64,000 bases of DNA from Eledone cirrhosa (lineage: Eukaryota). The stretch is taken from assembly GCA_964016885.1 (NCBI GenBank), contig OZ024766.1, positions 9,734,001 through 9,798,000 on the forward strand. Direction: 5' to 3'. Shown one piece after another: positions 21,701 to 51,063 of this stretch (its first letter is position 1; the number at the start of each line of letters is the position of its first letter). The notes beneath the pieces were generated by a model that saw only the letters and a program-made list of their open reading frames with translations, was not told where the DNA came from and ran no database searches. The position numbers were made by a program, and so were the translations under genes.

Positions 21701-21871
21701 TTGTATTCAGCCATGTAGGGCGATAACTTTTTTTTTTAGCAGGGAAAAGCGGACGTAAAATGATGATGATGATGATGATATATTATGTAAAAGAAAGTTT
21801 TGTTTAAAAAAAGAGGTGTAAGCAGGAGTAAGGTCTCTACATTCGTAGTGTGGAGATTCAGTATAAGAATG

Positions 21872-22168
21872 ACATTAAGAAAGATGCTGTGACTACATAA
21901 AACGTTTATTCATTATAATTATTTTTATGGCTCCCTTATGCAATCCATGATGTAGTATATATATTTGTTGAGGTGTATGCTTGCCAAGCACACAAGAAGA
22001 ACATGTTTTTGCCTGCAGTGTATCACATATCAACGAATATTTCATCTGAAGAAATCGCTCCTATACCATCAACAAATGTAGATACTGCATCTTGGATTGC
22101 ATAAGGGAGCCGTAAAAATAATTGTAATGAATAAATGTTTTATTTTATCACAGCATCTTTCTTAATGT
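21872..22168. repeat. Long imperfect inverted repeat
   Basis: aagaaagatgctgtga...ggctcccttatgcaatcca versus tggattgcataagggagcc...tcacagcatctttctt. Confidence 0.85.
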
Positions 22169-22264
22169 TGTTCCTATATATATACAAACAAACACACTAC
22201 AAGAATCTGAAGGTAATTAATGTTAATTGTATTTTATTAATTAAAATGTTGTTTTAATTTTCAG

Positions 22265-22303
22265 AGGCGGATTGGCAGGTGTTGAGCACTTTCAGAATTA
22301 CTG
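22265..22303 (+). CDS. SMAD2/3: Candidate 39-nt in-frame cassette exon of SMAD2/3 (x-GGLAGVEHFQNY-C), inserted just before SLDGRLQ
   Basis: Acceptor ttttaattttcag and donor ctg|gtgagt; 39 nt, phase 2/2 matching the phase-2 start of exon 29372; no stop; unique sequence among repeats. Confidence 0.65.
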
Positions 22304-22376
22304 GTGAGTTGTATATTTTTAGGGGTTTTGTGGGGGTCAGATCCACACACACACTCATACACATGTATATTTATGC

Positions 22377-22416
<40 letters not shown>

Positions 22417-22420
<4 letters not shown>

Positions 22421-22544
22421 TTAATATAGAAGAGATTCTACAGGACTAGAACTGTTTCATTCATTAGAAATCATCAGAGATTCCTGATGATTTCTAATGA
22501 ATGAAACAGTTCTAGTCCTGTAGAATCTCTTCTATATTAAAACT
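22417..22544. repeat. Perfect palindrome with CTGATGA-tttctaatgaat-GAAA cores on both strands
   Basis: Arms exactly complementary around a short loop; same family at ~12720, 13960, 21270, 57030-57420 and 59295-59465. Confidence 0.85.
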
Positions 22545-22780
22545 GTTATACTCTGCCATGTATTGAGTACCTTACTTACTGTGGTTACCTCCGATTCAAC
22601 CCGGAATAACGTATATATATATATATATATATACACAAACACACACATACATATGTTTAAATACATAGGTATGATATATATACATTCTTATATATATAGA
22701 TATACACATCTCTATGCATACATTTTCAGATATACATACATCCACCCATATATACATATATCCATCCATACACATACACA

Positions 22781-22819
<39 letters not shown>

Positions 22820-22939
22820 CGAAGGAAATGTGGTAAGGGAACCAGATGGACCATAACGCACCAAAGTACTCAATACTTAGGGTAGTCCAGAATTAGCCGT
22901 CGAAACAGCTTGAGCTCTGCCGTCGGGGTCATACTTGTT

Positions 22940-23482
<543 letters not shown>

Positions 23483-23853
23483 ATATATATTATGGCTGTA
23501 TCTCAATTTCAAGAATTGCCATCCCTTGACGTTTTTCTCATACATGGGTGACACAAGGATGACTTTTTAGTCCTGCCAAGGACTTACAGTCTCTTCTGCA
23601 TATGTTGCAGCGAAATAAAAAAGAAAGGCCATGTTTACACAACACACACAAGTCATTTATTCCAGAACCCTTTTTGGTTCAGATATTTTTGGGTGAACCC
23701 CAAAGTCTAATATTGTTATATGGTCGTAATATAAATATAAATATATACCTCTACCTTTTTCCACTCATTTGCAGAACCCTTGGGTTCCATGGACCCCACT
23801 TTGGGAAGCACTGGTTGAGATAAAGTGATACCAGTTTTTGAAGCTTTTTTTAA

Positions 23854-25280
23854 CCCTTCAGCATTTACATTACTCTATATATATTATTGTATTTTCACAG
23901 TAAAGGCTTTACCTCACATAATACCTCACATAACATTTATATTACTCTATATATATTATTGTATTTTCACAGTAAAGGCTTTACCTCACATAATATCTCA
24001 CATAACATTTACATTACTCTATATATACTATTGTATTTTCACAGTAAAGGCTTTACCTCACATAATATCTCACATAACATTTACATTACTCTATATATAC
24101 TATTGTATTTTCACAGTAAAGGCTTTACCTCACATAATATCTCACATAACATTTACATTACTCTATATATACTTTTGTATTGTCACAGTAAAGGCTTTAC
24201 CTCACATAATACCTCACATAACATTTACATTACTCTATATATACTATTGTATTTTCACAGTAAAGGCTTGACCTCACATAATATCTCACATAACATTTAC
24301 ATTACTCTATATATACTATTGTATTTTCACAGTAAAGGCTTTACCTCACATAATATCTCACATAACATTTACATTACTCTATATATACTATTGTATTTTC
24401 ACAGTAAAGGCTTCACCTCACATAATATCTCACATAACATTTACATTACTCTATATATACTATTGTATTGTCACAGTAAAGGCTTTACCTCACATAACAT
24501 TTACATTACTCTATATATACTATTGTATTTTCACAGTACAGGCTTTACCTCACATAATATCTCACATAACATTTACATTACTCTATATATACTTTTGTAT
24601 TGTCACAGTAAAGGCTTTACCTCACATAATATCTCACATAACATTTACATTACTCTATATATACTATTGTATTTTCACAGTAAAGGCTTTACCTCACATA
24701 ATATCTCACATAACATTTACATTACTCTATATATACTATTGTATTTTCACAGTAAAGGCTTTACCTTACATAATATCTCACATAACATTTACATTACTCT
24801 ATATATACTATTGTATTTTCACAGTAAAGGCTTTACCTCACATAATATCTCACATAACATTTACATTACTCTATATATACTATTGTATTTTCACAGTAAA
24901 GGCTTTACCTTACATAATATCTCACATAACATTTACATTACTCTATATATACTATTGTATTTTCACAGTAAAGGCTTTACCTTACATAATATCTCGCATA
25001 ACATTTACATTACTCTATATATACTATTGTATTTTCACAGTAAAGGCTTTACCTCACATAATATCTCACATAACATTTACATTACTCTATATATACTATT
25101 GTATTTTCACAGTAAAGGCTTTACCTCACATAATATCTCACATAATATAGAACCTATTAGATTTTGATATTATTTATTTTGATAACAATACCTTAACAAC
25201 AGTCTGAGCAGCCAGTTACAGCCAGTTTTAACAGAAAGAAGTGAGAGAATTCTGCCCGGTTTAAATTAAATGCTAAAGGG
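23854..25280. mobile_element. piggyBac-like non-autonomous element (TTAA TSD) containing a 72-bp tandem array (~18 copies)
   Basis: TTAA|cccttcagcattta ... taaatgctaaaggg|TTAA. Confidence 0.8.
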
Positions 25281-25404
25281 TTAAGTGAAGAAAGGCCTTG
25301 CACACACTCTGAATAACAATGATCGGTATCCAAAATGAAGTACAGGTCAACATTATTGGCTGTCATCGAGTTACAGGACTTACATCAGAATTTTACTTCT
25401 AGAA

Positions 25405-26739
25405 CAGCGTTTCTCAACCAGTGTGTCCCCGGAACCCTAGGATTCCGCAAGAGGTCGCTAGGGGTTCCGCGAGAACCAGTGATAAATAAACTAATGTATT
25501 TCTTAAAAGTAATTTTTTGTTTAATTATATGTTCGTCATTTTATTCTGCATTACGGCATATTGTCGGGAAATCCTTGTTTATTTTAAGAAAGGCTTTAAC
25601 CCCTTATATTATTTAAAACTAGGTCAATATAAGACATAGATATTAATTGTTTCTACTTTAGGCACAAGGCCAGCAAATACTCCAGTGTATTACTGGTACT
25701 TTATTTTATCAACCCTCTAACAATTGTTTCTACTTTAGGCACAAGGCCAGCAATTACCCCAGTGTATTACTGGTACTTTATTTTATCAACCCTGTAACAA
25801 TTGTTTCTACTTTTGGCACAAGGCCAGCAAATACCCCAGTGTATTACTGGTACTTTATTTTATCAACCCTGTAACAATTGTTTCTACTTTAGGCACAAGG
25901 CCAGCAATTACCCCAGTGTATTACTGGTACTTTATTTTATCAACCCTGTAACAATTGTTTCTACTTTTGGCACAAGGCCAGCAATTACCCCAGTGTATTA
26001 CTGGTACTTTATTTTATCAACCCTGTAATAATTGTTTCTACTTTTGGCACAAGGCCAGCAATTACCCCAGTGTATTACTGGTACTTTATTTTATCAACCC
26101 TGTAATAATTGTTTCTACTTTAGGCACAAGGCCAGCAATTACCCCAGTGTATTACTGGTACTTTATTTTATCAACCCTGTAACAATTGTTTCTACTTTAG
26201 GCACAAGGCCAGCAAATACCCCAGTGTATTACTGGTAGTTTATTTTATCAACCCTGTAATAATTGTTTCTACTTTAGGCACAAGGCCAGCAAATACCCCA
26301 GTGTATTACTGGTAGTTTATTTTATCAACCCTGTAATAATTGTTTCTACTTTAGGCACAAGGCCAGCAAATACTCCAGTGTATTACTGGTACTTTATTTT
26401 ATCAACCCTGTAATAATTGTTTCTACTTTTGGCAGAAGGCCAGCAATTACCCCAGTGTATTACTGGTACTTTATTTTATCGACCCCCGTAAGGATGAAAG
26501 GCAAAGTTAACTTCGGCATAGATATTAATTGTTTCTACGTTAGGCACAAGGCCAGCAATTACCCCAGTGTATTACTGGTACTTCATTTTATCGAGTACCA
26601 GTAATGCACTGGGTAATTGCTGGCCTTGTGCCTCGGCATAGATATTAATAATGGTATATAATAATTTTTATGTAGGGGTTCCCTGAGACATGAACCCATT
26701 TCAAGGGTTCCACAAGGGTAAAAATGTTGAGAAACGATG
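25405..26739. mobile_element. hAT/Charlie-like MITE with a nested, tandemly amplified SINE
   Basis: TIRs cagcgtttctcaac / gttgagaaacgatg; ttctagaa left flank; inner insert flanked by the direct repeat catagatattaat. Confidence 0.7.
25645..26515 (-). repeat. 77-bp tandem array (~11 copies) of the SINE family-1 3' end; same array at 58890-59200
   Basis: attgtttctactttaggcacaaggccagcaattaccccagtgtattactggtac repeats. Confidence 0.92.
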
Positions 26740-26924
26740 TCCTAACAAGACCTAGAGGGTATCTTGGCAGTGGAATTTGGGGACTGGGGACTGGGGACTG
26801 TCTGAAAACTTGTCGCTATTGAATCTGTGTGTGTATGTGTATGTGTGTGTGTGTGTGTATATATACATGTGTGTATTGAATATAAATATATATATATACG
26901 TGTGTGTATTTCTATTGTGTATCT

Positions 26925-27460
26925 TGTTGTTGTTACTGTTGTTGATAGTGTTTCTGTAGTTATTGTTGGAGGTGATGATGATGTCGCTGTTGTTTTTACT
27001 GTTGCTGTTGATGCTGCTGCTGCTGTTGTTGTTATTGATGATGTTGTTGTTGTTACTGGTGTTGGTGTTGTTTTTACTGTTGTTGGTGTTGTTGTTATTG
27101 ATGCTGCTGTTGTTTATGTTGTTATTGTTACTGTTGTTGTTATTGTTGCTGTTGTTGTTATTAATACTGTTGTTGGTGTTGTTGCTGTTGTTGTTATTGG
27201 TGTTGTTGTTGCTGTTGTTGTTGTTATTGGTGTTGTTGTTGCTGTTGTTGTTGTTGTTATTAGTGTTGTTGTTGTTGTTACTGTTGTTGTTATTGGTGCT
27301 GTTGTTACTGTTGTTGTCGTTACTGTTGTTGTTATTGTTAGTTGTTGTTACTGGTGTTGTTGTTGGTGTTACTGGTGTTGGTGTTGTTGTTACTGGTGTT
27401 GTTATTGTTAGTTGTTGTTATTGGTGTTGTTGTGGTTACTGTTGTTGGTGTTGTTGTTGT
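26925..27460. repeat. (GTT)n microsatellite
   Basis: Direct inspection. Confidence 0.95.
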
Positions 27461-28035
27461 TGGCCAGACTTTCCCCCTATCAGGTCCACACACCTCCCAA
27501 AACAAGGTACAGCATGGCCAACAAGCCACACCCTTCTTATATCGGCACCACGCAGCCCCACACTGTAAACGTAGTTGGTGTTAGGAAGGGTATCCAGCTG
27601 TAAAAATACACCCCAACCAAAATATAGTGTGATGGACATACAGAAACACTCTCTTTCTCTATCTCTCTCACAAAAACTATAAGTACGAAGCTGACTTTTG
27701 GGATTTTAAGTGCTAAGAGTGTATGTATGTATATATATAGATATATATAGAAAAAAAAGAACAAAAAAAAACTACTCCCAGTCCACGCTGTAATGTGGCC
27801 GTGTAGGTAACACGGTAAAAAGTTCCCAGTTCCACACTGTAAATGTGGTTGGTGTTAGGAAGAGCATCCAGCCGTAGAAAACCTGCCAGACAGTCCTATA
27901 CGAGCGAGACACGGTCACCCGACCAACCTTGCCTCAAATGTCCATCTTCCACGCTAGTATGGGTTAGACGGGAGTTATCCCGTCTAACCCATACTAGCGT
28001 GGAAGATGGACGTTAAACGATGATGATGATGATAT

Positions 28036-28295
28036 AGACCGGGTGATGTGCTGTTTCCTTGAGCAAGACACTTTATTTCACATTGCTCCAGTTTACTCAG
28101 CTGTAGAAATGAGATGATTGGGACTGGGGTCCCTATCATTCCACTGTAAAGTGGTCGTGGAGGTGCCACAGCAAAAAGGCACCCAGCACTCACTGTAAAT
28201 GAGGTTGGTGTTAGGAAGGGCATCCAGCTGTAGAAATCAAGCCAGAATCAGTTCCCGTCCCACCCTTGCAAGCAGGGAAAAGCAGATGTAAAATG
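28036..28295 (+). mobile_element. SINE family 2, 5'-truncated
   Basis: Near-identical to 23203-23460. Confidence 0.85.
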
Positions 28296-28569
28296 AAATG
28301 AAAAAGTGAAATGATATATAATAACGCACATGGTATTTGAACTTAGCGTGTCTCACAAACTTACACCACTAAAAATAGCAGCCAGGTTTACTCGACATTT
28401 GAATTAGCTCAACAAATTAACGGAGCCGAATATATCAAAGGTATATATTGAGTTAGAAACTCAAAATAGTCTCTTACAATAAAATAGCTCTAAGAAAGAG
28501 ATTTTTCCGAGCCGTATATTATAATTCTAGGAAAAATCTCTTTCCTAGAGCTATTTTATTGTAAGAGAT

Positions 28570-28930
28570 GCAGTCCCTAGGGCATTGAAAATTTGAAATT
28601 TGTTTTGCTCAGAACACCCACAGGACCATAAATATTACATGTGTAAAGTTTGAAAACAATCGGTAGGGTGGTTCTCGAGTTTTAGGCAGCTGACTGACAG
28701 ACAGACATTCTCTATTTTAGATATATAAACTAGCAGAAAACCACCCAGCGGCCGGTTTTCTGCTAGTCTATATATCTAAAACAGAGAATGTCTGTCTGTC
28801 TGTCTGTCAGCTCACTAAAACTTGAGAACCATCCAACCGATTGTTTTCAAACTTTAGACATGTAATACTTATGGTCCTGTGAGTGTTTTGAGCAAGAATT
28901 ATTTCAAATTTTCAATGCCCTAGGGACCGC
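28570..28930. mobile_element. Inverted pair of non-autonomous Helitron-like ends forming a ~170-bp-arm palindrome
   Basis: tctatatatctaaaa...gtctgtctgtc 5'-end-like motif next to ggttttctgCTAGt; arms ~28570-28742 and ~28753-28930. Confidence 0.6.
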
Positions 28931-29064
28931 ATTAGGCGATTTAGCGTTCTCTCTATATAATTCTTAGTCTTTCTTTTTAGATAGATACATAGATATAACG
29001 TTGCGCCTTTATAATATCTGTCTGTATGTCTGTCTGTCTGCATTACGTCATTATGACGCACTCA

Positions 29065-29096
<32 letters not shown>

Positions 29097-29336
29097 GTAT
29101 CGTAATGCAGACAGCAAGACATAGCTTTCCTTCCCCTCTTCCAGCGTCTCTCTCTCTCCCTGCCGCTATCCCCCTCTTGTAGTCTGTCTCTTTCTTTCAC
29201 TCTCACTCTCACTCTCACTCTCTCTCTACGCGTCGGACAGACAGACAGACAGAGAAATTGCTGGTTATATATTATAAGGAGATATAAAGGTGGTGGACAG
29301 ACAGACTAAGAAACAGCTCTTCTTTTTATAAAATAG

Positions 29337-29678
<342 letters not shown>

Positions 29679-31085: not shown

Positions 31086-31229
31086 TCCTACCACCGGTGC
31101 TGGTACCTCGACACCAACCCAATGATATTCCAGCCCGGGAAAACTTCCCCCCCCTGACCGACTATGCAACCACGGTCCCCAACACAGATTTTCCGGCTGG
31201 AGTTGACGAAAATACGTTCAACATACCAG
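31086..31229 (+). CDS. SMAD2/3: SMAD2/3 exon, linker (VLPPVLVPRH...FPAGVDENTFNIP)
   Basis: tttcag acceptor, cag|gtacc donor; 144 nt, phase 1/1; conserved VLPPVLVPR. Confidence 0.95.
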
Positions 31230-31329
31230 GTACCTTTTGCTCTTCCTTTTTAACTGTTTCAAAGGGTCAACTAACCCCTATTTTTTAAGATATTAGCTGC
31301 TAAATCATTCCTCATTTTAAAGAGTTCCC

Positions 31330-31905
31330 ATTTAAATTAAAACCTTCCAACATAATTTTATATAAAGACCCTACATTAAGTTACTATCTTCGTAATGAAA
31401 TAATTTTAGTAAATCCCTCAAAATTCTTTGTTAATTAATTGAAATACATGGCTCCAGTTTAAACTTACTATCTTAGTAATGAAATAATTTTAGTAAATCC
31501 CTCAAAATTCTTTGTTAATTAATTGAAATACATGGTTCCAGTTTAAACTTAAAATCTTCCAACATAATTTTATATAAGAACCCTACATTAAGTTATTATC
31601 TTAGTAATGAAATAATTAATAATTTTAGTAAATCCCTCAAAATTCTTCATTAATTAATTGAAATACATGGTTCCAGTTTAAACTTAAAATCTTCCAACAT
31701 AATTTTATATAAGGACCCTACATTAAGTTATTATCTTAGTAATGAAATAATTAATAATTTTAGTAAATCCCTCAAAATTCTTCATTAATTAATTGAAATA
31801 CATGGTTCCAGTTTAAACTTAAAATCTTCCAACATAATTTTATATAAGGACCCTACATTAACTTACTATCTTAGTAATGAAATAATTAATAATTTTAGTA
31901 AAACC
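31330..31905. repeat. ~135-bp AT-rich tandem repeat; single related copy at ~47955-48115
   Basis: aattttagtaaatccctcaaaattc at 31621 and 31756. Confidence 0.8.
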
Positions 31906-31964
31906 AGCTCTGGTTCTTTGAAACAAAACCTCTTGTTTTAACCCTTTAGCAATTATAAAACCGT

Positions 31965-33000
31965 GATATTGTCGGGCAGAAGTGTGTCCGTAATGATGAT
32001 GGTGTACTTGCCATCACTGATGCTGATGAGAAGGTAACTTGGAAGTGTCACTACAAGAGGCTACTAAATGAGGAGAATAAATGGGAAAAAAATAGTCTGC
32101 CCCAAATCGATCCAATAGAAGGACCAGCAGTGCAAGTTGAAGGTAGTATAAGAAGTAAGGCAATCAAAGATATGAAAACAGGCAAGACAGCTGGGCCTTC
32201 GGAGATAGTTGCTGAAATGCTGAAAGCATCTGGAATGGTGGGACACACTATGGTCACCCGGATAGTAAACCAAGTCATACAGAATGGGGTTATACCAAAT
32301 GACTGGCGTAGCAGCATCATCATTAACTGCTACAAGGGTAAAGGAGATGCCCTAGATAGGGGAAACTATAGAGGTATTAAATTGATTGACCAGGTCATGA
32401 AGGTCACAGAAAGAGTTATAGCACAACTAATCAGAGAGTGAATATAGGGTACTGGTCCCCTCTGGCAAATGGCCATGCTCAGTGTGTAGGAAAGGAGTAG
32501 GCAGAAATTCCATATGTCCCAAATGCAAACTATGGGTACATAAAAGATGTAGTGGGATCACAGGTAAGCTATCTAAGAAGGTAGACGTTATATGTGGCCG
32601 ATGCTCAGGCAAAATAAGTAGCAAGCGCCCACAGGATACTAGCTCCCTCTATTGCCCAGATGGTTCTATAGAAATAGTGGATACCGTCCGTTACCTGTGT
32701 GACAAAATCAGCAGTGGTGGAGGGTGCTCTGAAAGTACAGTAGCCAGAGTCAGAACGGGATGGAAAAAGTTCAGAGAGCTTATACCACTGTTGGCCACTA
32801 AAGGTTTCTCTCTAAAAATGAAAGGCAGATTGTATGATGCCTGTATACGAACAGCAATGCTACGTGGCAGACCCAGAAAAACCTGGGACGATTTGATAGA
32901 TTCCGACTTCACACACTTACACCTCTCCAAGACAATCTCACTGGACCGAGAGCTTTGGCGCTAGGCAGTAATACAGAAGACCCGCCTTACCTAAGTAAAA
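31965..33000 (+). mobile_element. Internally deleted RTE-type LINE (RT N-terminal part fused to zinc-finger region and 3' end)
   Basis: KTGKTAGPSEIVAEMLK, DWRSSIIINCYKGKGD, NYRGIKL; CRKGVGRNSI..WVHKRC; RGRPRKTW. Confidence 0.9.
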
Positions 33001-33831
33001 AAGGGAAACTTACAGTCAGTAGGCACCTCTTAATCAAATATACACCCCCACCCCATCCACACCACCCCCTTCAATGTGAAGTTATGTTGGTACCACAACA
33101 TCCAGTCCTAAATAAATGAGGTTGTGTAGGTGTCACAACAAAGGAACACACAGTCCACGCTGTAATGTGGCCGTGTAGGTAACACGGTAAAAACCTCCCA
33201 GTCCAGACTGTAAATGTGGTTGGTGTTAGGAAGGGCATCCAGCCGTAGAAAACCCGCCAGACAGTCCTATACGAGCAAGACAACCAATCTTGCCTCAAGT
33301 GGGACAATTCCCGTCTAAACCCCATGCAAGCGTGGAAGATGGACGTCAAATGGTGGCTACACCCGATATGCCACCTCCATACACACATGCATGTATATAT
33401 GTGTCTGTGTGTATATCATGACGCATACACTGTTCACTTTCCTGACATTTGTACATTATTCTATGTACTATACATGCGCCTTTGATGAGTTGTAGTGCAC
33501 CTGAGCACTGTACACAATTTCATTATTATTGAATGGGCCTACTCTGAGTATGTGTCTGTAAATTAAAGGTGGAAAACTGGGAGAGGGCACTTGCCCTGGT
33601 GGTCAGGGTCACTGTGGCCTTTTAGTGGGCTTTCTCCACGAATGTCCCTCGGAAGTCTCCCCCCTATTGGGGAATTTTTTCATGGTTCTATTATTACATC
33701 CTCTGTTTCTTGTTTTTTTTTACACGCAGAAATGCCCATTTATACCGTTCTGTACTGTCCTTAATGTCTACTTTGTGTAAACCCCTGTGGTTAATAAAGA
33801 AAGCATTATTATTATTATTATTATTATTATG

Positions 33832-34040
33832 ATTACTCTATATTTTCTATGGTATTTTCACAGTATAGGTCTTATCTGACATAATTATCTCGCATAATAA
33901 CGAACCTACAAGATTTTGCTATTATCTATTTTGAGAACAATACCTTAACATCAGTATGAGCAACTGGTTAGAGCCAGTTTGAACAGAAAGAGGTGAAAGA
34001 ATTCTGGCCAGATACGGCCGGTTTAAATGCTGAAGGTTTA
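33832..34040. mobile_element. Right part of the piggyBac-like MITE with a single (unamplified) 72-bp unit
   Basis: Matches 25090-25284; the left TIR is probably ttaaccctttagca at ~31938, before the nested LINE. Confidence 0.6.
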
Positions 34041-34115
34041 ATGTGTGACGAAAGATGTGTGATTTGGCTGCTGTTTTTTACATATCAATCATGGATACCT
34101 TTGCTTTAATTCCAG

Positions 34116-34175
34116 AAACTCCACCACCCGGTTACATTAGTGAGGATGGTGAAACCACAGATAATCAAGGAATGG
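34116..34175 (+). CDS. SMAD2/3: SMAD2/3 exon, linker PY motif (ETPPPGYISEDGETTDNQGM)
   Basis: ttccag acceptor, g|gtagg donor; 60 nt, phase 1/1; ETPPPGY is characteristic of SMAD2/3. Confidence 0.95.
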
Positions 34176-34224
34176 GTAGGTATTTCTTGTCTTTTGTGGA
34201 GGGTTCGTCTTTATATTTGGTAGG

Positions 34225-35180
34225 TGAGCATTCAGTAATCTGAAGAAGGGAGTTGGGTGTAAAAACCAAACTCGCTGTCTTCAATTCGGTATTTGTCCCA
34301 ACCCTTGCCTACGGTTGTGAATCTTGGGTAATGACCGAAAGAAATCGATCGCGAATACAAGCAGCCGAAATAGGGTTCCTTCGAAGGGTCTTTGGAGTAA
34401 GGTTACTCGATAAAGTGTGTAGCTGGGACCTCAGTGAGTCACTCCAAGTAGAGCAGCTACTTTTCTGAATTGAGAGATCACAGCTCTGATACTACAGACA
34501 TGTGGTTAGAATGTCTTATGAAAGAATCTCTGAATTGAGAGATCACAGCTCTGATACTATGACATGTGGTTAGAATGTCTCATGAAAGAATCTCTGAATT
34601 GAGAGATCACAGCTCTGATACTATGGACATGTGGTTTGAATGTCTCAGGAAAGAATCTCTGATTTGAGAGATAACAGCTCTGATACTACAGACATGTGGT
34701 TAGAATGTCTCAGGAAAGAATCTCTGAATTGAGAGATCACAGCTCTGATACTATGGACATGTGGTTAGAATGTCTCAGGAAAGAATCTCTGAATTGAGAG
34801 ATCACAGCTCTGATACTATGGACATGTGGTTAGAATGTCTCAAGAAAGAATCTCTGATTTGAGAGATAACAGCTCTGATACTACAGACATGTGGTTAGAA
34901 TGTCTCAGGAAAGAATCTCTGAATTGAGAGATCACAGCTCTGATACTATGGACATGTGGTTAGAATGTCTCAGGAAAGAATCTCTGATTTGAGAGATAAC
35001 AGCTCTGATACTACAGACATGTGGTTAGAATGTCTCAGGAAAGAATCTCTGAATTGAGAGATCACAGCTCTGATACTATGGACATGTGGTTAGAATGTCT
35101 CAGGAAACAATCTCTGAATTGAGAGATCACAGCTCTGATACTATGGACATGTGGTTAGAATATCCCAGGAAAGAATCTCA
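34225..35180 (+). mobile_element. RTE-type LINE fragment ending in a 65-bp tandem array (~11 copies, 34465-35180)
   Basis: PTLAYGCESW...RIQAAEIGFLRR; same 65-bp unit as 11254. Confidence 0.88.
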
Positions 35181-35194
35181 GGACTATCTGGCAG

Positions 35195-35432
35195 GTTTTC
35201 TACAGCTGGATGCCCTTCCTAACACCAACCTAATTTACAGTGAGTGCTGGGTGCTTTCTTTGCCGTGGCACCTCCATGACCACTTTACAGTGGAATGATA
35301 GGGACCCCAGTCCCTATCATCTCATTTCTACAGCTGAGTAAACTGGAGCAATGTGAAATAAAGTGTCTTGCTCAAGGAAACAACACATCACCCGGTCTGA
35401 GAATTGAACTCACAACTTTTCGAGCCATGTGC
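35195..35432 (-). mobile_element. SINE family 2
   Basis: Reverse complement of the 23138 element. Confidence 0.8.
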
Positions 35433-35724
35433 CTCTATATATATATATATGTGTGTGTCTGTGTAAAAGGTAAACAGAAATAACAACACAATTGGTACAG
35501 TATATGGAAGGTATATATTAGGTTAAAGCTTGGACTAGCAGGAAGAGGGTCTTAACGTTTTGGATGCTAGTCCTTCATCAGAAGAAAGAATGAGAAATAA
35601 GATAGATTGAGGGGACGGGCGGGGTGGTATTGGAAAAAATGTCTTTAGATAAAAATAACAGGTCCATTCATGTTGACATCATATATTAATAACATTTTAA
35701 GAGGTTTTCTTTGGTCTATTTCAG

Positions 35725-35757
35725 ATGGTGTTGACTTGTCTCCTAGTCCTCCAATAG
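35725..35757 (+). CDS. SMAD2/3: SMAD2/3 33-nt linker microexon (DGVDLSPSPPI)
   Basis: ctatttcag acceptor, tag|gtaagg donor; phase 1/1; encodes the SP motifs expected in the SMAD2/3 linker. Confidence 0.8.
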   Translation: MVLTCLLVLQ

Positions 35758-35801
35758 GTAAGGTTGTTGTTGTTACTGTTGTAGAGGTGTTCTGTAGTTA
35801 A

Positions 35802-40752
<4,951 letters not shown>

Positions 40753-40754
40753 GT

Positions 40755-41540
40755 TGTCCTCCATATCCAGTTTTGGTCTTTAGGGTGCTGAGGTAGACAA
40801 CACCAGGCAATGTCTCACAGCCGCTCTCCGTGAATTTCTTTTCCATAGTATCGACATTGGCCAAGTTCCATTTATACAAACCCCTCTCCACGGACTCCAA
40901 CCACGTCTTCCTTGGTCTGCCGTGATCTCTAGTGCCAGGGACTGCCAAGTGAGTGATGGAGTTGATGTATGACATGGCTCGCTGTACATGTCCTTACTAA
41001 CAGAGACGTTGTGTGTGAAGGGCAGCAGTGATCTCGTCCCCACCCAGCTTCTGGTGGAGCACTGTTCTTCTTCCTTGGTCTGCCGTGATCTCTAGTGTCA
41101 GGGACTGCCAAGTGAGTGATGGAGTTGATGTATGACATGGCTCGCTGTACATGTCCTTACTAACAGAGACGTTGTGTGTGAAGGGCAGCAGTGATCTCGT
41201 CCCCACCCAGCTTCTGGTGGAGCACTGTTCTTCTTCCTTGGTCTGCCGTGATCTCTAGTGTCAGGGACTGCCAAGTGAGTGATGGAGTTGATATATGGCG
41301 TGGCTTGCTGTACATGTCCTTACCAACAGAGACGTTGTGTGTGAAGGGCAGCAGTGATCTCATCCCCACCCAGCTTCTGGTGGAGCACTGTTCTTCTTCC
41401 TTGGTCTGCCGTGATCTCTAGTGTCAGGGACTGCCAAGTGAGTGATGGAGTTGATATATGGCGTGGCTCGCTGTACATGTCCTTACCAACAGAGATGTTG
41501 TGTGTGAAGGACAGCAGTGATCTCATCCCCACCCAGCTTC
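40755..41540 (-). mobile_element. LINE 3' fragment with a 163-bp tandem array (~4 copies)
   Basis: QRLCW*GHVQRA...RDHGRPRKTW in minus frames. Confidence 0.8.
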
Positions 41541-41571
41541 TAGATCGAAAACTCTACTTCGAAAGATCGAG

Positions 41572-41664
41572 ACGTATCTGAGGACCTTGCGATTTCAGAG
41601 TCAGGTTCGATCACCACATCGATCGTGCCTCAAGCTGGTCACCAGAGAAACGATTGTAGTATGT
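41572..41664 (+). ncRNA. Degenerate hammerhead motif with long stem II
   Basis: acgtat-CTGAGGA-...-GAAA-cgattg-TA-gtatgt. Confidence 0.45.
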
Positions 41665-41717
41665 ATAATAAATTTTAATTCGTCGCACCACTGATTCCCC
41701 GTTTCTTATGTGATATT

Positions 41718-41768
<51 letters not shown>

Positions 41769-41945
41769 GTTTAACGTCCATCTTCCATGCTTGCATGGGT
41801 TTGGACGGGAGTTTTCCCACTTAAGGCAAGAGTGGTTGTCTTGCTCGCATAGGACTGTCTGGCGGGTTTTCTACAGCTGGATGCCCTTTATATATATATA
41901 GTGACGAAACATAAGTCAATTGCATGAACTCATAATCCTTTATTT

Positions 41946-42001
41946 ACTGCTATATATATTTCGATGATAGCCATTGAATGGCTATGACCTCATCAGGCAG
42001 T
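41946..42001 (-). ncRNA. Minimal type-I hammerhead ribozyme motif, intact core
   Basis: Minus strand: actgc-CTGATGA-ggtcatagccat tca atggctatcatc-GAAA-tatata-TA-gcagt. Confidence 0.85.
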
Positions 42002-42064
42002 TAGTCAGTTCTCAGATATGCCAGCTCTGTGTTTATAGTGTTGATGGTATCAGAGCCTTGGGAC

Positions 42065-42098
<34 letters not shown>

Positions 42099-42143
42099 AT
42101 AACCAAATATTAATAGTTGAAGTATGTCATACATCAATTCATG

Positions 42144-42208
42144 TATTTTATCTGACGAGGACGTACTGAAAAAACAGCACAGTACCTTCGAAATATATAT
42201 AATAAAAC
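42144..42208 (+). ncRNA. Minimal type-I hammerhead ribozyme motif (family of 128-194)
   Basis: ttttat-CTGACGA-ggacgtactg..cagtaccttc-GAAA-tatata-TA-ataaaa. Confidence 0.75.
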
Positions 42209-42254
42209 ATATTTTGATTATGTGAATGTCTTCATTTATAATTATTCTGTGGAT

Positions 42255-42583
42255 TGGCAGTATCGGTAGAGGGTCGGACGCCATGCTTTCCAGCATAGAG
42301 TTACGTCCCTTTACGATCTGAGTTCAAATCCCGCCGAGGTTGACTTTGCCTTTCATCCTTACGGGGTCGATAAAATAAAGTACCAGTAATGTACTGGGTA
42401 TTTGCTGGCCTTGTGCCTAAAGTAGAAACAATTATTCTGAATAATTATATATATATATAGAGTAATAATTGTTTCTGTTTTGGGCACAAGGCCAGCAATT
42501 ATCCCAGTGCATTACTGGTACTTTATTTTATCGACCCCGTAAGGATGAAAGGCAAAGTCAACCTCGGCGGGATTTGAACTCAG
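42255..42583. mobile_element. Tail-to-tail inverted pair of SINE family 1 (+ 42255-42432; - 42465-42583)
   Basis: A and B boxes and central domain present in both orientations. Confidence 0.85.
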
Positions 42584-42795
42584 ATTGGCAATATATGGTA
42601 ATAATAATCAGTGTGAAGACTAAAATGCAAAGAGGGTTCGATAAGTTTCAGAAGAAGATCCTGTTAAGGGTGAAAGCAGCGATTCTTTGCTTAAACTTTA
42701 ATCTGTTATTTTAATAAATATATATATAAATGTAAATTATTAAAAAAATAATGAATAAACAAAGAAACAGTTCCTTATATTAAACAAAAGAAGTT

Positions 42796-42935
42796 CATTA
42801 TTTTACGATCGTTTCTAGGACATATATGTGTTAGAATTGGTATGCATATTCTATAGATCTATGTACAATATTTATACAAACTATCAGAGGGAATATACAT
42901 ACCTTCACATATATATGTTGTCTTCAGAAATAATG
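42796..42935 (-). ncRNA. Type-I hammerhead motif with long stem II
   Basis: Minus strand: cattattt-CTGAAGA-(~105-nt hairpin)-GAAA-cgatcg-TA-aaataatg; 8-bp stem I. Confidence 0.7.
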
Positions 42936-43191
42936 ATGCTTGTTTATTGATAAGAACAAAGATTCAATACAATAGGTCTGTTTGGGAACAGGTTTTGAAT
43001 AGACAAATGAAATAGAGATTGAAATATATAAAAATCTATCAAGAAATATAGTTAGGTGTGTGTATATGTATGTAAATACGCTCGCAGATGTGCATATATG
43101 TGTATGCACATATGTATACGTATAGTGACACATATGCATACGTATAGTGGACACAACCGTAAACTTTTGGTAGATTTATCTATATATATAA

Positions 43192-43225
<34 letters not shown>

Positions 43226-43380
43226 TTAAGGATATTATTTATGGTTATGTATATACTAAAACCTTTTATAGTTATATATATTTTATACCCTAAATAGTGA
43301 AAGACAGTAATTTATTACTATCTTATTACCAGTAAGATAAATAGCTCAATGTAACAACATCAGTTGTTTTACAGAGCAGT

Positions 43381-43962
<582 letters not shown>

Positions 43963-44229
43963 TAATTAAGCATTGTAATACCAACCTCATCAAAACAGCC
44001 TCTTGTTCTCTCAAACGAAGCGTTCCAGTTTATATGACTCCTGTTTAACCCCTTTGAGACTAAATCTCTGCTGTAAGTACCTTTGTTAAGTTATGTTCCA
44101 AACACCCCTGGTTCTATGATACAAAACTGTTTGTAAGAACCTTTGTTAAGTTATGTTCCAAACACCCTAGGTTCTATTATACAAAACTGTTTATAAGAAC
44201 CTTTGTTAAGTTATGTTCCAAACACCACC

Positions 44230-45447
<1,218 letters not shown>

Positions 45448-45737
45448 TAAGTCTCTCTCTCTCCCTCTCTCCCTCTCTCTCACTCTCTCTCTATATATAT
45501 ATATCTCTCTCTCTCTATATATATATATATATCTCTCTCTCTATAGATCTATATATATATATATATCTTTCGTATATATATGTGTGTGTGTGTGTATTTA
45601 TGTATATATAGTATATGTATTTTTGTATATAAGACTGTCCTATATGAGAGAGACACGGTTACCCGACCCAACTTGCCTCAAATGGGACAAAGCCGTCCAA
45701 CCCATGCTAGTGGGGAAGATAGATGTCAAGCGATGAT

Positions 45738-45772
<35 letters not shown>

Positions 45773-45776
45773 ATGT

Positions 45777-47872
45777 GGAGGCACATGGCTTAGTGGTTAG
45801 AGCATTGGGCTTGCAATTGAAAGGTTGTGAGTTCAATTTTCAGACCAGGTGATGTGTTGTTTCCTTGAGCAAGAGACTTTATTTCACATTGCTCCAGTTT
45901 ACTCAGCTGTAGAAATGAGATGATAGAGACTGGGGTCCCTGTCATTCCACTGCAAAGTGGTCGTGGAGGTACCACGACAAAAAAAGCACCCAGCCCGCAC
46001 TGTAAAATAGTTGTGGGGGTGCCACAGCAAAAAAGCACCCAGCCCACACTGTAAAGTGGTCGTGGAGGTGCCACAGCAAAAAAGCACCCACCCCACACTG
46101 TAAAGTGGTCGTGGAGGTGCCACAGCAAAAAAGCACCCAGCCCACACTGTAAAGTGGTTGTGGAGGTGCCACAGCACAAAAGCACCCACCCCACACTGTA
46201 AAGTGGTTGTGGAGGTGCTACAGCAAAAAAGCACCCAGCCCACACTGTAAAGTGGTCGTGGAGGTGCCACAGCACAAAAGCACCCACCCCACACTGTAAA
46301 GTGGTCGTGGAGGTGCCACAGCAAAAAAGCACCCACCCCACACTGTAAAGTGGTCGTGGAGGTGCCACGGCAAAAAAGCACCCAGCCCACACTGAAAAGT
46401 GGTCGTGGAGGTGCCACAGCAAAAAAGCACCCAGCCCACACTGTAAAGTGGTCGTGGAGGTGCCACAGCACAAAAGCACCCAGCCCACACTGTAAAGTGG
46501 TCATGGAGGTGCCACAGCAAAAAAGCACCCAGCACTCACTGTAAAGTGGTCGTGGAGGTGCCACGGAAAAAAAGCACCCAGCCCACACTGTAAAGTGGTC
46601 GTGGAGGTGCCACGGCACAAAAGCACCCAGCCCACACTGTAAAGTGGTCATGGAGGTGCCACAGCAAAAAAGCACCCAGCACTCACTGTAAAGTGGTCGT
46701 GGAGGTGCCACGGAAAAAAAGCACCCAGCCCACACTGTAAAGTGGACGTGTAGGTGCCACAGCACAAAAGCACCCAGCCCACATTGTAAAGTGGTCATGG
46801 AGGTGCCACAGCACAAAAGCACCCAGCCCACACTGAAAAGTGGTCATGGAGGTGCCACAGCAAAAAAGCACCCAGCCCACACTGTAAAGTGGTCGTAGAG
46901 GTGCCACAGCACAAAAGCACCCAGCCCACACTGTAAAGTGGTCGTGGAGGTGCCACGGCAAAAAAGCACCCAGCACTCACTGTAAAGTGGTCGTGGAGGT
47001 GCTACAGCAAAAAAGCACCCAGCCCACACTGTAAAGTGGTCGTGGAGGTGCCACGGCAAAAAAAGCACCCAGCACTCACTGTAAAGTGGTCGTGGAGGTG
47101 CCACAGCACAAAAGCACCCACCCCACACTGTAAAGTGGTCTTGGAGGTGCCACGGCAAAAAACCACCCAGCACTCACTGTAAAGTGGTCATGGAGGTGCC
47201 ACAGCACAAAAGCACCCAGTCCACACTGTAAAGTGGTCATGGAGGTGCCACAGCAAAAAAGCACCCAGCCCACACTGTAAAGTGGTCGTGGAGGTGCCAC
47301 AGCACAAAAGCACCCACCCCACACTGTAAAGTGGTCGTGGAGGTGCCACGGCAAAAAACCACCCAGCACTCACTGTAAAGTGGTCGTGGAGGTGCCACAG
47401 CACAAAAGCACCCAGCCCACACTGTAAAGTGGTCATGGAGGTGCCACAGCAAAAAAGCACCCAGCCCACACTGTAAAGTGGTCATGGAGGTGCCACAGCA
47501 CAAAAGCACCCACCCCACACTGTAAAGTGGTCGTGGAGGTGCTACAGCACAAAAGCACCCACCCCACACTGTAAAATAGTTGTGGAGGTGCCACAGTAAA
47601 AAAGCACCCACCCCACACTGTAAAGTGGTCGTGGAGGTGCCACGGCAAAAAAGCACCCAGCCCTCACTGTAAAGTGGTCGTGGAGGTGCCACGGCAAAGA
47701 AAGCACCCAGCACTCACTGTAAAGTGGTCGTGGAGGTGCCACGGCAAAGAAAGCACCCAGCACTCACTGTAAATGAGGTTGGTGTTAGGAAGGGCATCCA
47801 GCTGTAGAAATCAAGCCAGAATCAGTTCCCGTCCCACCCTTGCAAGCAGGGACAAGCAGACGTAAAATGATG
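45777..47872 (+). mobile_element. SINE family 2 whose internal 49-bp unit has expanded to ~37 copies (45948-47770)
   Basis: tRNA head at 45777 and LINE-like tail at ~47830 match the compact 23138 copy. Confidence 0.9.
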
Positions 47873-48117
47873 TGTATATATATTTGAGAAAAGTCATCGC
47901 TACAGCAGCCATTAAACCAGTTAAATGCTGTCAAGGGACAGAGATCAGCGGCTCCAAATTCTTCATTAATTAATTGGAATACAGGGTTATTATTTGATTA
48001 AAATCTTCCAACATAATTTTATAGAAGAACCTTACATTAGGTTACTATCTTAAAGAATTAATTAATAATTTTTGTAAAACCAGCTCTGGTTCTATGAAAC
48101 AAAACCTCTTGTTTTAA

Positions 48118-50809
48118 CCCTTTAGTATTTACATTACTCTATATTTTCTATTATATTTTCACAGTTAAGGCTTTACCTCACATAATATCTCACATAACAT
48201 TTACATTACTCTATATATACTATTGTATTTTCACAGTAAAGGCTTTACCTCACATAATATCTCATATAACATTTACATTACTCTATATATACTATTGTAT
48301 TTTCACAGTAAAGGTTTTACCTCACATAATATCTCACATAACATCTACATTACACTATATATACTATTGTATTGTCACAGTAAAGGCTTTACCTCACATA
48401 ATATCTCACATAACATTTACATTACTCTATATATACTATTGTATTTTCACAGTAAAGGCTTTATCTCACATAACATTTACATTACTCTATATACACTATT
48501 GTATTTTCACAGTAAAGGCTTTACCTCACATAATATCTCCCATAACATTTACATTACTCTATATATACTATTGTATTTTCACAGTAAAGGCTTTACCTCA
48601 CATAATATCTCACATAACATTTACATTACTCTATATATACTATTGTATTTTCACAGTAAAGGCTTTACCTCACATAATATCTCACATAACACTTACATTA
48701 CTCTATATATGCTATTGTATTTTCACAGTAAAGGTTTTACCTCACATAATATCTCACATAACATTTACATTACTCTATATATACTATTGTATTTTCACAG
48801 TAAAGGCTTTACCTCACATAATATCGCACATAACATTTACATTACTCTATATTTTCTATTATATTTTCACAGTAAAGGTTTTACCTCACATAATATCTCA
48901 CATAACACTTACATTACTCTATATATGCTATTGTATTTTCACAGTAAAGGTTTTACCTCACATAATATCTCACATAACATTTACATTACTCTATATATAC
49001 TATTGTATTTTCACAGTAAAGGCTTTACCTCACATAATATCTCATAACATTTACATTACTCTATATTTTCTATTATATTTTCACAGTAAAGGTTTTACCT
49101 CACATAACATTTACATTACTCTATATATACTATTGTATTTTCACAGTAAAGGCTTTACCTCACATAATATCTCATAACATTTACATTACTCTATATTTTC
49201 TATTATATTTTCACAGTAAAGGTTTTACCTCACATAATATCTCACATAACATTTACATTACTCTATATATACTATTGTATTTTCACAGTAAAGGCTTTAC
49301 CTCACATAATATCTCATAACATTTACATTACTCTATATTTTCTATTATATTTTAACAGTAAAGGTTTTACCTCACATAATATCTCACATAACATTTACAT
49401 TACTCTATATTTTCTATTATATTTTCACAGTAAAGGTTTTACCTCACATAATATCTCACATAACATTTACATTACTCTATATATACTATTGTATTTTCAT
49501 AGTAAAGGCTTTACCTCACATAATATCTCACATAACACTTACATTACTCTATATATGCTATTGTATTTTCACAGTAAAGGTTTTACCTCACATAATATCT
49601 CACATAACATTTACATTACTCTATATATACTATTGTATTTTCACAGTAAAGGCTTTACCTCACATAATATCTCACATAACATTTACATTACTCTATATAT
49701 ACTATTGTATTTTCACAGTAAAGGCTTTACCTCACATAATATCTCACATAACATTTACATTACTCTATATATGCTATTGTATTTTCACAGTAAAGGTTTT
49801 ACCTCACATAATATCTCACATAACATTTACATTACTCTATATATGCTATTGTATTTTCACAGTAAAGGCTTTACCTCACATAATATCTCACATAACATTT
49901 ACATTACTCTATATATACTATTGTATTTTCACAGTAAAGGCTTTACCTCACATAATATCTCACATAACATCTACATTACACTATATATACTATTGTATTT
50001 TCACAGTAAAGGCTTTACCTCACATAATATCTCACATAACATTTACATTACTCTATATATACTATTGTATTTTCACAGTAAAGGCTTTACCTCACATAAT
50101 ATCTCACATAACATTTACATTACTCTATATATACTATTGTATTTTCACAGTAAAGGCTTTACCTCACATAATATCTCACATAACATTTACATTACTCTAT
50201 ATATGCTATTGTATTTTCACAGTAAAGGTTTTACCTCACATAATATCTCACATAACATTTACATTACTCTATATATGCTATTGTATTTTCACAGTAAAGG
50301 CTTTACCTCACATAACATTTACATTACTCTATATATACTATTGTATTTTCACAGTAAAGGCTTTACCTCACATAATATCTCACATAACATTTACATTACT
50401 CTATATATACTATTGTATTTTCACAGTAAAGGCTTTACCTCACATAATATCTCACATAACATCTACATTACACTATATATACTATTGTATTTTCACAGTA
50501 AAGGCTTTACCTCACATAATATCTCACATAACATTTACATTACTCTATATATACTATTGTATTTTCACAGTAAAGGCTTTACCTCACATAATATCTCACA
50601 TAACATCTACATTACACTATATATACTATTGTATTTTCACAGTAAAGGCTTTACCTCACATAATACCTCACATAACATTTACAATTACATCTACGAGATT
50701 TTGCTATTTTTTATATTGAGAGCAATACCTTAACGTCCGTATGAGCAGCCAATTACAGCTGGTTTGAACAGAATTCTGGCCAGATATGGCTGGTTTAAAT
50801 GCTTAAGAG
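48118..50809. mobile_element. piggyBac-like element with 72-bp array (~36 copies)
   Basis: TTAA|ccctttagtattta ... taaatgcttaagag|TTAA. Confidence 0.75.
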
Positions 50810-50886
50810 TTAAGTTACTGTCTTTGTAATGAAATAACTAATAGTTTTAGTAAATCTCTCAAAAGTCTTTGTGTGTGTTTTATTAG

Positions 50887-51063
<177 letters not shown>

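Follow-up and report, generated by a model that had tools for sequence, protein, structure and literature searches.

The 64,000-nt stretch of Eledone cirrhosa DNA analysed here (the window, G000:C27:9734001-9798000) contains most of one Smad gene on the + strand, and the question it raises is whether a 39-nt island within a 73-kb intron is an exon that lengthens the protein just before its DNA-binding hairpin, at the place where exon 3 (E3) lengthens vertebrate SMAD2, and whether the two are related in origin and in effect. Our reading, to which we assign a probability of roughly 0.55, is that the island is a conserved in-frame cephalopod exon, likely mostly included, which likely arose independently of E3 and would damp or tune DNA binding.

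The gene was assigned to Smad2/3 by a PF03165 match and by exons that translate to an MH2 domain ending in CSSMS, and the near-identical Octopus sinensis protein scores 453 bits against SMAD2/3 chains versus 370 bits against Mad. Searches with the MH1 family and full protein queries found four Smad loci in the genome, of Smad2/3 type (this gene), Smad1/5 type (C17), Smad4 type and Smad6/7 type (C7), the types being assigned by sequence inspection in an assembly that may be incomplete. This gene is the sole Smad2/3 found in the genome, as the initial annotation had supposed. The Smad1/5 gene of the same genome has no intron at the insert site, and Smad4 splits later in the hairpin. The relevant features are the following (positions are those of the window unless stated otherwise).

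G000:C27:9690157-9690362, outside the window and 65,902 nt upstream: coding exon 1 (206 nt), ending in phase 2 at AG/gtagga
22217..22264, + strand: AT-rich 3' splice region (motif scan), with TTAAT at 22217, 22223, 22237 and 22254 and the acceptor ttttcag
22265..22303, + strand: 39-nt Smad2/3 exon, phase 2/2 (sequence, phases, spliced contig, RefSeq X1, Argonauta and Logan proteins)
22304..22336, + strand: donor gtgagt and two G-runs at 22322 and 22332 (sequence)
29372..29565, + strand: next Smad2/3 exon, from the hairpin to the MH1 end, opening cag/C TCT TTA GAT GG
31086..51063 (approximate span), + strand: remaining Smad2/3 exons, covering linker and MH2 and ending SSMS-stop (exon translation)

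The exon at 22265-22303 is preceded by ...ttttaattttcag with the acceptor ttttcag and followed on its 3' side by gtgagt. With it the protein reads ..ITIA-R-GGLAGVEHFQNY-C-SLDGR, and without it ..ITIA-S-SLDGR; 13 residues are thus added after strand beta1 and ahead of the DNA-binding hairpin, R-GGLAGVEHFQNY-C replacing one S. The exon ends in TG, and the next base sets the residue (C or T gives Cys, G gives Trp and A a stop). The C that opens exon 29372 completes Cys on inclusion, and consequently the skip junction becomes Ser, not Arg. Among 86 genome matches to 21850-22335 the self match alone reaches the exon; an origin from the adjoining repeat was rejected, as no repeat copy extends into it. 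Sequence, phases and single-copy match bear out the original description of a unique 39-nt island, bounded by ttttcag and gtgagt, whose phase 2/2 fits the next exon. The protein of the hairpin exon is 100% identical to those of O. sinensis and O. bimaculoides, and elsewhere the E. cirrhosa protein differs slightly from O. sinensis (e.g. GGESDKEDKW, ITSQESN). Sequence alone is weak evidence for such an exon: crude splice-site scans of the 73-kb intron were too strict, so that the real exon fell 1-2 pyrimidines short of their thresholds, and they listed 5 and 6 other exon-like candidates (the 6 mostly repeat-derived), which we do not count as evidence. The RNA junction and conservation decide.

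Upstream of the acceptor, the four TTAAT motifs are candidate branch motifs, one of which would supply the branch point, and the motif scan found neither TGC nor TGCATG in 22217-22264, nor TGC from 22100 to the acceptor. The G-runs beyond the donor are possible intronic splicing enhancers, a role suggested by hnRNP H/F biology. Neural microexons of the Srrm/eMIC type are very short, carry a UGC enhancer just 5' of the acceptor and show neural-biased inclusion; at 39 nt the present exon exceeds the 27-nt class, and it has no UGC enhancer just upstream of the acceptor. A dispersed, MITE-like repeat at 21851-22197, whose inverted arms are 110 nt long (21862-21971 and 22069-22178; 88%), ends about 70-90 nt 5' of the acceptor and matches about 40 other scored places in the genome. 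On the other side, at 22417-22544 and 113 nt 3' of the donor, lies a perfect inverted repeat of 61 nt around a loop of 6 nt, so that a potential RNA hairpin flanks the exon on either side. Intron 1 also holds two partial copies of the exon 1 3' end with its donor (G000:C27, about 9692580-9692615 and 9698215-9698345), the longer with about 110 nt of the exon, an internal deletion and no evident acceptor; they are possibly decoy donors or local duplications.

Two runs, both consisting of assembled contigs, were aligned, and the alignment was confined to 29308-29573 on account of long TA repeats in the 7 kb that separate the two exons. From run X1 came a single spliced contig of 1006 nt at depth 47. 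Its 5' overhang is the cassette exon, attached without a gap to 29372, which is the 22303 to 29372 junction that had been predicted, and its 3' overhang is the exon that follows; we took the contig as RNA because it is spliced at both ends. Run X2 gave a genomic contig. The junction of exon 1 to the cassette is present in the O. sinensis X1 model and in Logan proteins, only 30 loose letters being readable in the E. cirrhosa contig. No second loose end or skip contig was seen in run X1 on 29308-29573, a comparison in which contigs drop minor forms. All four site-spanning Logan proteins, on 83+4+1+1 contigs (all 89), include the exon, although contigs lose minor forms and cannot measure inclusion. 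The skip form is known from gene models alone, whereas inclusion is seen in RNA contigs. RefSeq carries, by automatic annotation only, two O. sinensis isoforms with and without the same exon and its identical 13 residues, X1 (XP_029653407.1, 430 aa) and X2 (XP_036371093.1, 417 aa); the O. vulgaris and O. bimaculoides models are skip forms.

Skipping also changes a residue at the junction itself. Arg stands there (position 69, SMAD3 numbering) in 202 of 205 insert-free relatives, the three exceptions being the Octopus skip models, and Arg is retained on skipping in nearly all the other groups for which isoform pairs are listed. We consider it quite likely that the exon is included in most transcripts and that the skip form is a minor one, and we infer that selection in cephalopods favoured the long form. 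The inclusion bias and the loss of Arg on skipping weaken the idea of a balanced switch. The proposal that one gene yields SMAD2-like and SMAD3-like isoforms therefore holds insofar as both are modelled in RefSeq O. sinensis, while a regulated switch between them is at most putative, all 89 Logan contigs and the sole RNA contig of E. cirrhosa including the exon.

These observations could be taken further, with the exon constitutive in cephalopods and the skip form mere splicing noise or a gene-model artefact, so that no isoform switch exists. The lack of a skip contig in run X1 and among the Logan cluster members, the loss of the conserved Arg and the imperfect O. bimaculoides skip models, which are also without one MH2 exon, would all fit; but RefSeq has both X1 and X2 for O. 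sinensis, and assembled contigs hide minor forms. RefSeq isoform variants normally rest on read support. We regard strictly constitutive use as unlikely, and retain a mostly included exon with a minor skip form.

Conservation across cephalopods, the other outcome by which the exon was to be judged, agrees with the initial annotation. The insert is identical at 13/13 residues in the four site-spanning Logan proteins, two of which have 15-16 other differences from O. sinensis, and in a sequence cluster of 9 members it is retained at 11/13 residues in Argonauta. In a tree built without the inserts, the cephalopod group had a support of 100/99 and the two divergent Logan proteins were sister to Octopus plus Argonauta (99/93 for that pair). 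They are probably squid or cuttlefish, in which case the exon would go back some 270 million years, to the ancestor of the coleoids. The 13/13 identity is, on the sequences compared, to be read as core-like conservation and not as extra constraint, since a whole-protein identity of 96-97% would often give the same. Among the best 120 of 500 matches, no shorter protein with the insert came from a cephalopod. Past the hairpin, all nine cephalopod proteins read KGHPH instead of KGLPH (29409-29417), a form found in 0 of 375 others (367 GL, 8 RL), which on this alignment is a second cephalopod-specific change adjoining the DNA-binding hairpin.

The position of the insert is that of E3, as had been proposed, since exon 29372 starts at SMAD3 Ser70 and the insert directly precedes SLDGR. 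The two are alike in lying in frame between beta1 and the beta2-beta3 hairpin, in an apparently dominant long form and in an intact set of hairpin R/Q/K. E3, however, has 30 residues and the octopus insert 13, with no likeness to chicken or saury E3 (local score 11-12, shuffle p=0.63 and 0.91), which upholds the view that the two are unrelated in sequence. The insert thus shares with E3 its position and probably, by the PS/PR junction pattern, its intron, but not its length or sequence. Unlike vertebrates, the octopus has one Smad2/3 gene and no separate SMAD3, and compared with SMAD2 its long form has Cys in place of Arg before SLDGR and its short form Ser.

In order to place the exon among other animals, we collected 405 related proteins, 319 of them with both anchors; these are database protein records, and inserts were judged at the protein level. 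For 25 invertebrate species of five phyla, O. sinensis among them, NCBI lists paired isoforms, one carrying an insert and one lacking it, and sea-cucumber Logan proteins show both forms. The inserts at the junction are as follows.

Echinoderms: 19-21 residues, the urchin, brittle star, starfish and sea cucumber sequences aligning with one another
Cockroach, termite, cricket and stick insect (polyneopteran) and damselfly (odonate): 24 residues
Mayflies: 22 residues
Leafhoppers: 12 residues
Scallops: 16 residues
Nemertean (one): 16 residues
Dreissena: 7 residues
Ticks: 5-7 residues
Oysters and Lingula: 4 residues
Lampreys: 13 residues

These group-specific inserts occupy the same junction as that of the octopus, with unrelated sequences and, in contrast to the octopus, skip forms that nearly all keep Arg. 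Those of 4-7 residues may reflect alternative acceptors. In 210 pairwise comparisons the 10 best were all within groups (p<=0.002), and the cephalopod and scallop inserts showed no likeness in the shuffle test (p>=0.76). A cephalopod-lamprey likeness (p=0.007, score 14) was rejected as chance among 210 pairs, and odd inserts in single fish, bird and bat models were left out as probable model artefacts. In mayflies two inserts can stack at this junction (22 and 32 residues), and lampreys have two that differ from each other (13 and 7); these double inserts suggest that the one intron holds at least two optional segments. Among Hemiptera, planthopper Smad2/3 has a shortened and altered hairpin (NLEGRIHR), leafhoppers combine their insert with TVDGR, and aphid cluster members are 240-aa records without most of the N-terminal part; judging from these proteins, DNA binding may have been remodelled in the order.

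The preference for this site was evaluated with the top 120 of 1907 matches to an insert-free query, an insert-bearing one being excluded since it over-samples inserts. Extra residues occurred at the junction in 15 of 68 anchored rows, two of them doubtful (one garbled, one with a single residue), versus 1 of 172 at three MH2 junctions (1/59, 0/59 and 0/54 separately, in the same matches). The MH1-linker junction is about as insert-prone (9/64 rows, p=0.27); the rows are related by descent, and the p-values are only indicative. No insert was found in 93 BMP-type sequences, four misclassified Smad2/3 rows having been set aside.

As for what the insert does, it counts against a damping role that mice expressing the short SMAD2 only are reportedly viable. 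The available sections of the structural study of SMAD2 (Aragon 2019, PMC6824466) describe E3 as flexible and appended between beta1 and the hairpin; the fold stays intact, E3 adopts both open and closed states, and affinity falls about fourfold. According to the same study, E3 partly occludes the DNA face, those of its residues that immediately precede the hairpin move when DNA is bound, SMAD2beta contacts DNA through the loop between beta1 and beta2, Leu111 and Arg114, and the long form of mouse SMAD2 prevails in most tissues (PMC6824466). By analogy, the 13 cephalopod residues would lengthen the loop before the hairpin and so damp or tune DNA binding. The octopus hairpin retains the DNA-contacting Arg, Gln and Lys, so the long form would probably still bind DNA, with the 13 residues tuning access. 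Whether the insert works in the manner of E3, as a flexible appendage that covers part of the DNA face and weakens binding while the fold is kept, we regard as an even bet by this analogy. At less than half the length of E3, and without the sequence of its two helices, the insert may not reach the DNA face.

The exon could instead be without effect on DNA binding, allowed at this place by the intron and a tolerant surface loop, and kept for partner contact, nuclear import, its Cys or His, or by splicing constraints. Inserts at the site do range from 4 to 30 residues with no common motif, the linker junction takes inserts at a similar rate, and E3 has further effects, on localisation, oligomer state and partners, as the accessible part of a 2024 review has it (PMC11063908). 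Yet the insert adjoins the residues that contact DNA in SMAD2beta, and the E3 residues just before the hairpin shift upon binding, so that we find the absence of any such effect doubtful and prefer a loop extension that would tune DNA binding.

With regard to origin, the choice had been left between convergence and an ancient splice switch; our data favour convergence, in a pattern much wider than the initial annotation supposed. Short inserts can lose detectable likeness, and unrelated sequence is accordingly no proof of separate origin; still, from these comparisons the cephalopod insert probably arose independently of E3. An alternative exon of the bilaterian Smad2/3 gene that was retained in many lineages, drifted beyond recognition and was lost in SMAD3 and others would explain the inserts at one junction in deuterostomes, lophotrochozoans and ecdysozoans, and the part of the 2024 review available takes the Drosophila insert to point to an ancestral form (PMC11063908), but it is quite improbable given that inserts stay long recognisable within groups (echinoderms p<=0.002; SMAD2 of chicken vs saury p=0.001), that four mollusc inserts (7, 12, 13 and 16 residues) have nothing in common, that lampreys have an insert with no likeness to E3 (p=1.0), and that none occurs in 7 Branchiostoma proteins or in the single Hydra, Priapulus and chiton and three gastropod proteins, single records being weak for absence.

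The best reading is instead repeated exon gain in one old intron adjoining the hairpin: Smad2/3 genes would have a phase-2 intron at this point, in an insertion-tolerant loop, which lineages fill with different exons. In its fullest form, which we put forward tentatively and at less than even odds, the junction would be a hotspot where cephalopods, scallops, echinoderms, insects, ticks, lampreys and jawed vertebrates each gained their own DNA-binding-tuning alternative exon. The division of labour between SMAD2 and SMAD3 would then have been reinvented six or more times as isoforms in single-gene invertebrates, with the damped form as the default in cephalopods.

The cephalopod exon is already in automatic annotation and is, alone, a modest finding. 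Drosophila dSmad2/Smox is reportedly, as others cite it, a protein with an MH1 insert corresponding to exon 3, which would make it, like the octopus gene, a single-copy invertebrate Smad2/3 with an insert said to match that exon. An invertebrate insert at the site is thus in print, one in dSmad2 being cited in the 2024 review (PMC11063908), whose accessible text does not describe it as an alternative exon; no Drosophila sequence was among the matches collected here. Elsewhere, in the portions available, vertebrate Smad2 is said to differ from all other Smad2/3 orthologues by the insert, whose origin is called open (PMC3500652); invertebrates go unmentioned in Aragon 2019 (PMC6824466), and a Capitella paper is silent on the insert (PMC7522025). 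Our literature search, thin for subscription papers and without supplements, found no paper on the cephalopod exon and no cross-phylum survey.

The literature on E3 origin, as far as these portions go, is in disagreement, the insert being held unique to vertebrates (PMC3500652) or ancestral (PMC11063908), and the sequences gathered here fit neither view simply, since inserts at the site are common yet unrelated. Invertebrate Smad2/3 constructs in cross-species assays should be treated with caution, as they may represent one of two isoforms. The natural inserts of 4-30 residues constitute a panel for asking whether any extension of this loop damps DNA binding or whether the structure of E3 is special.
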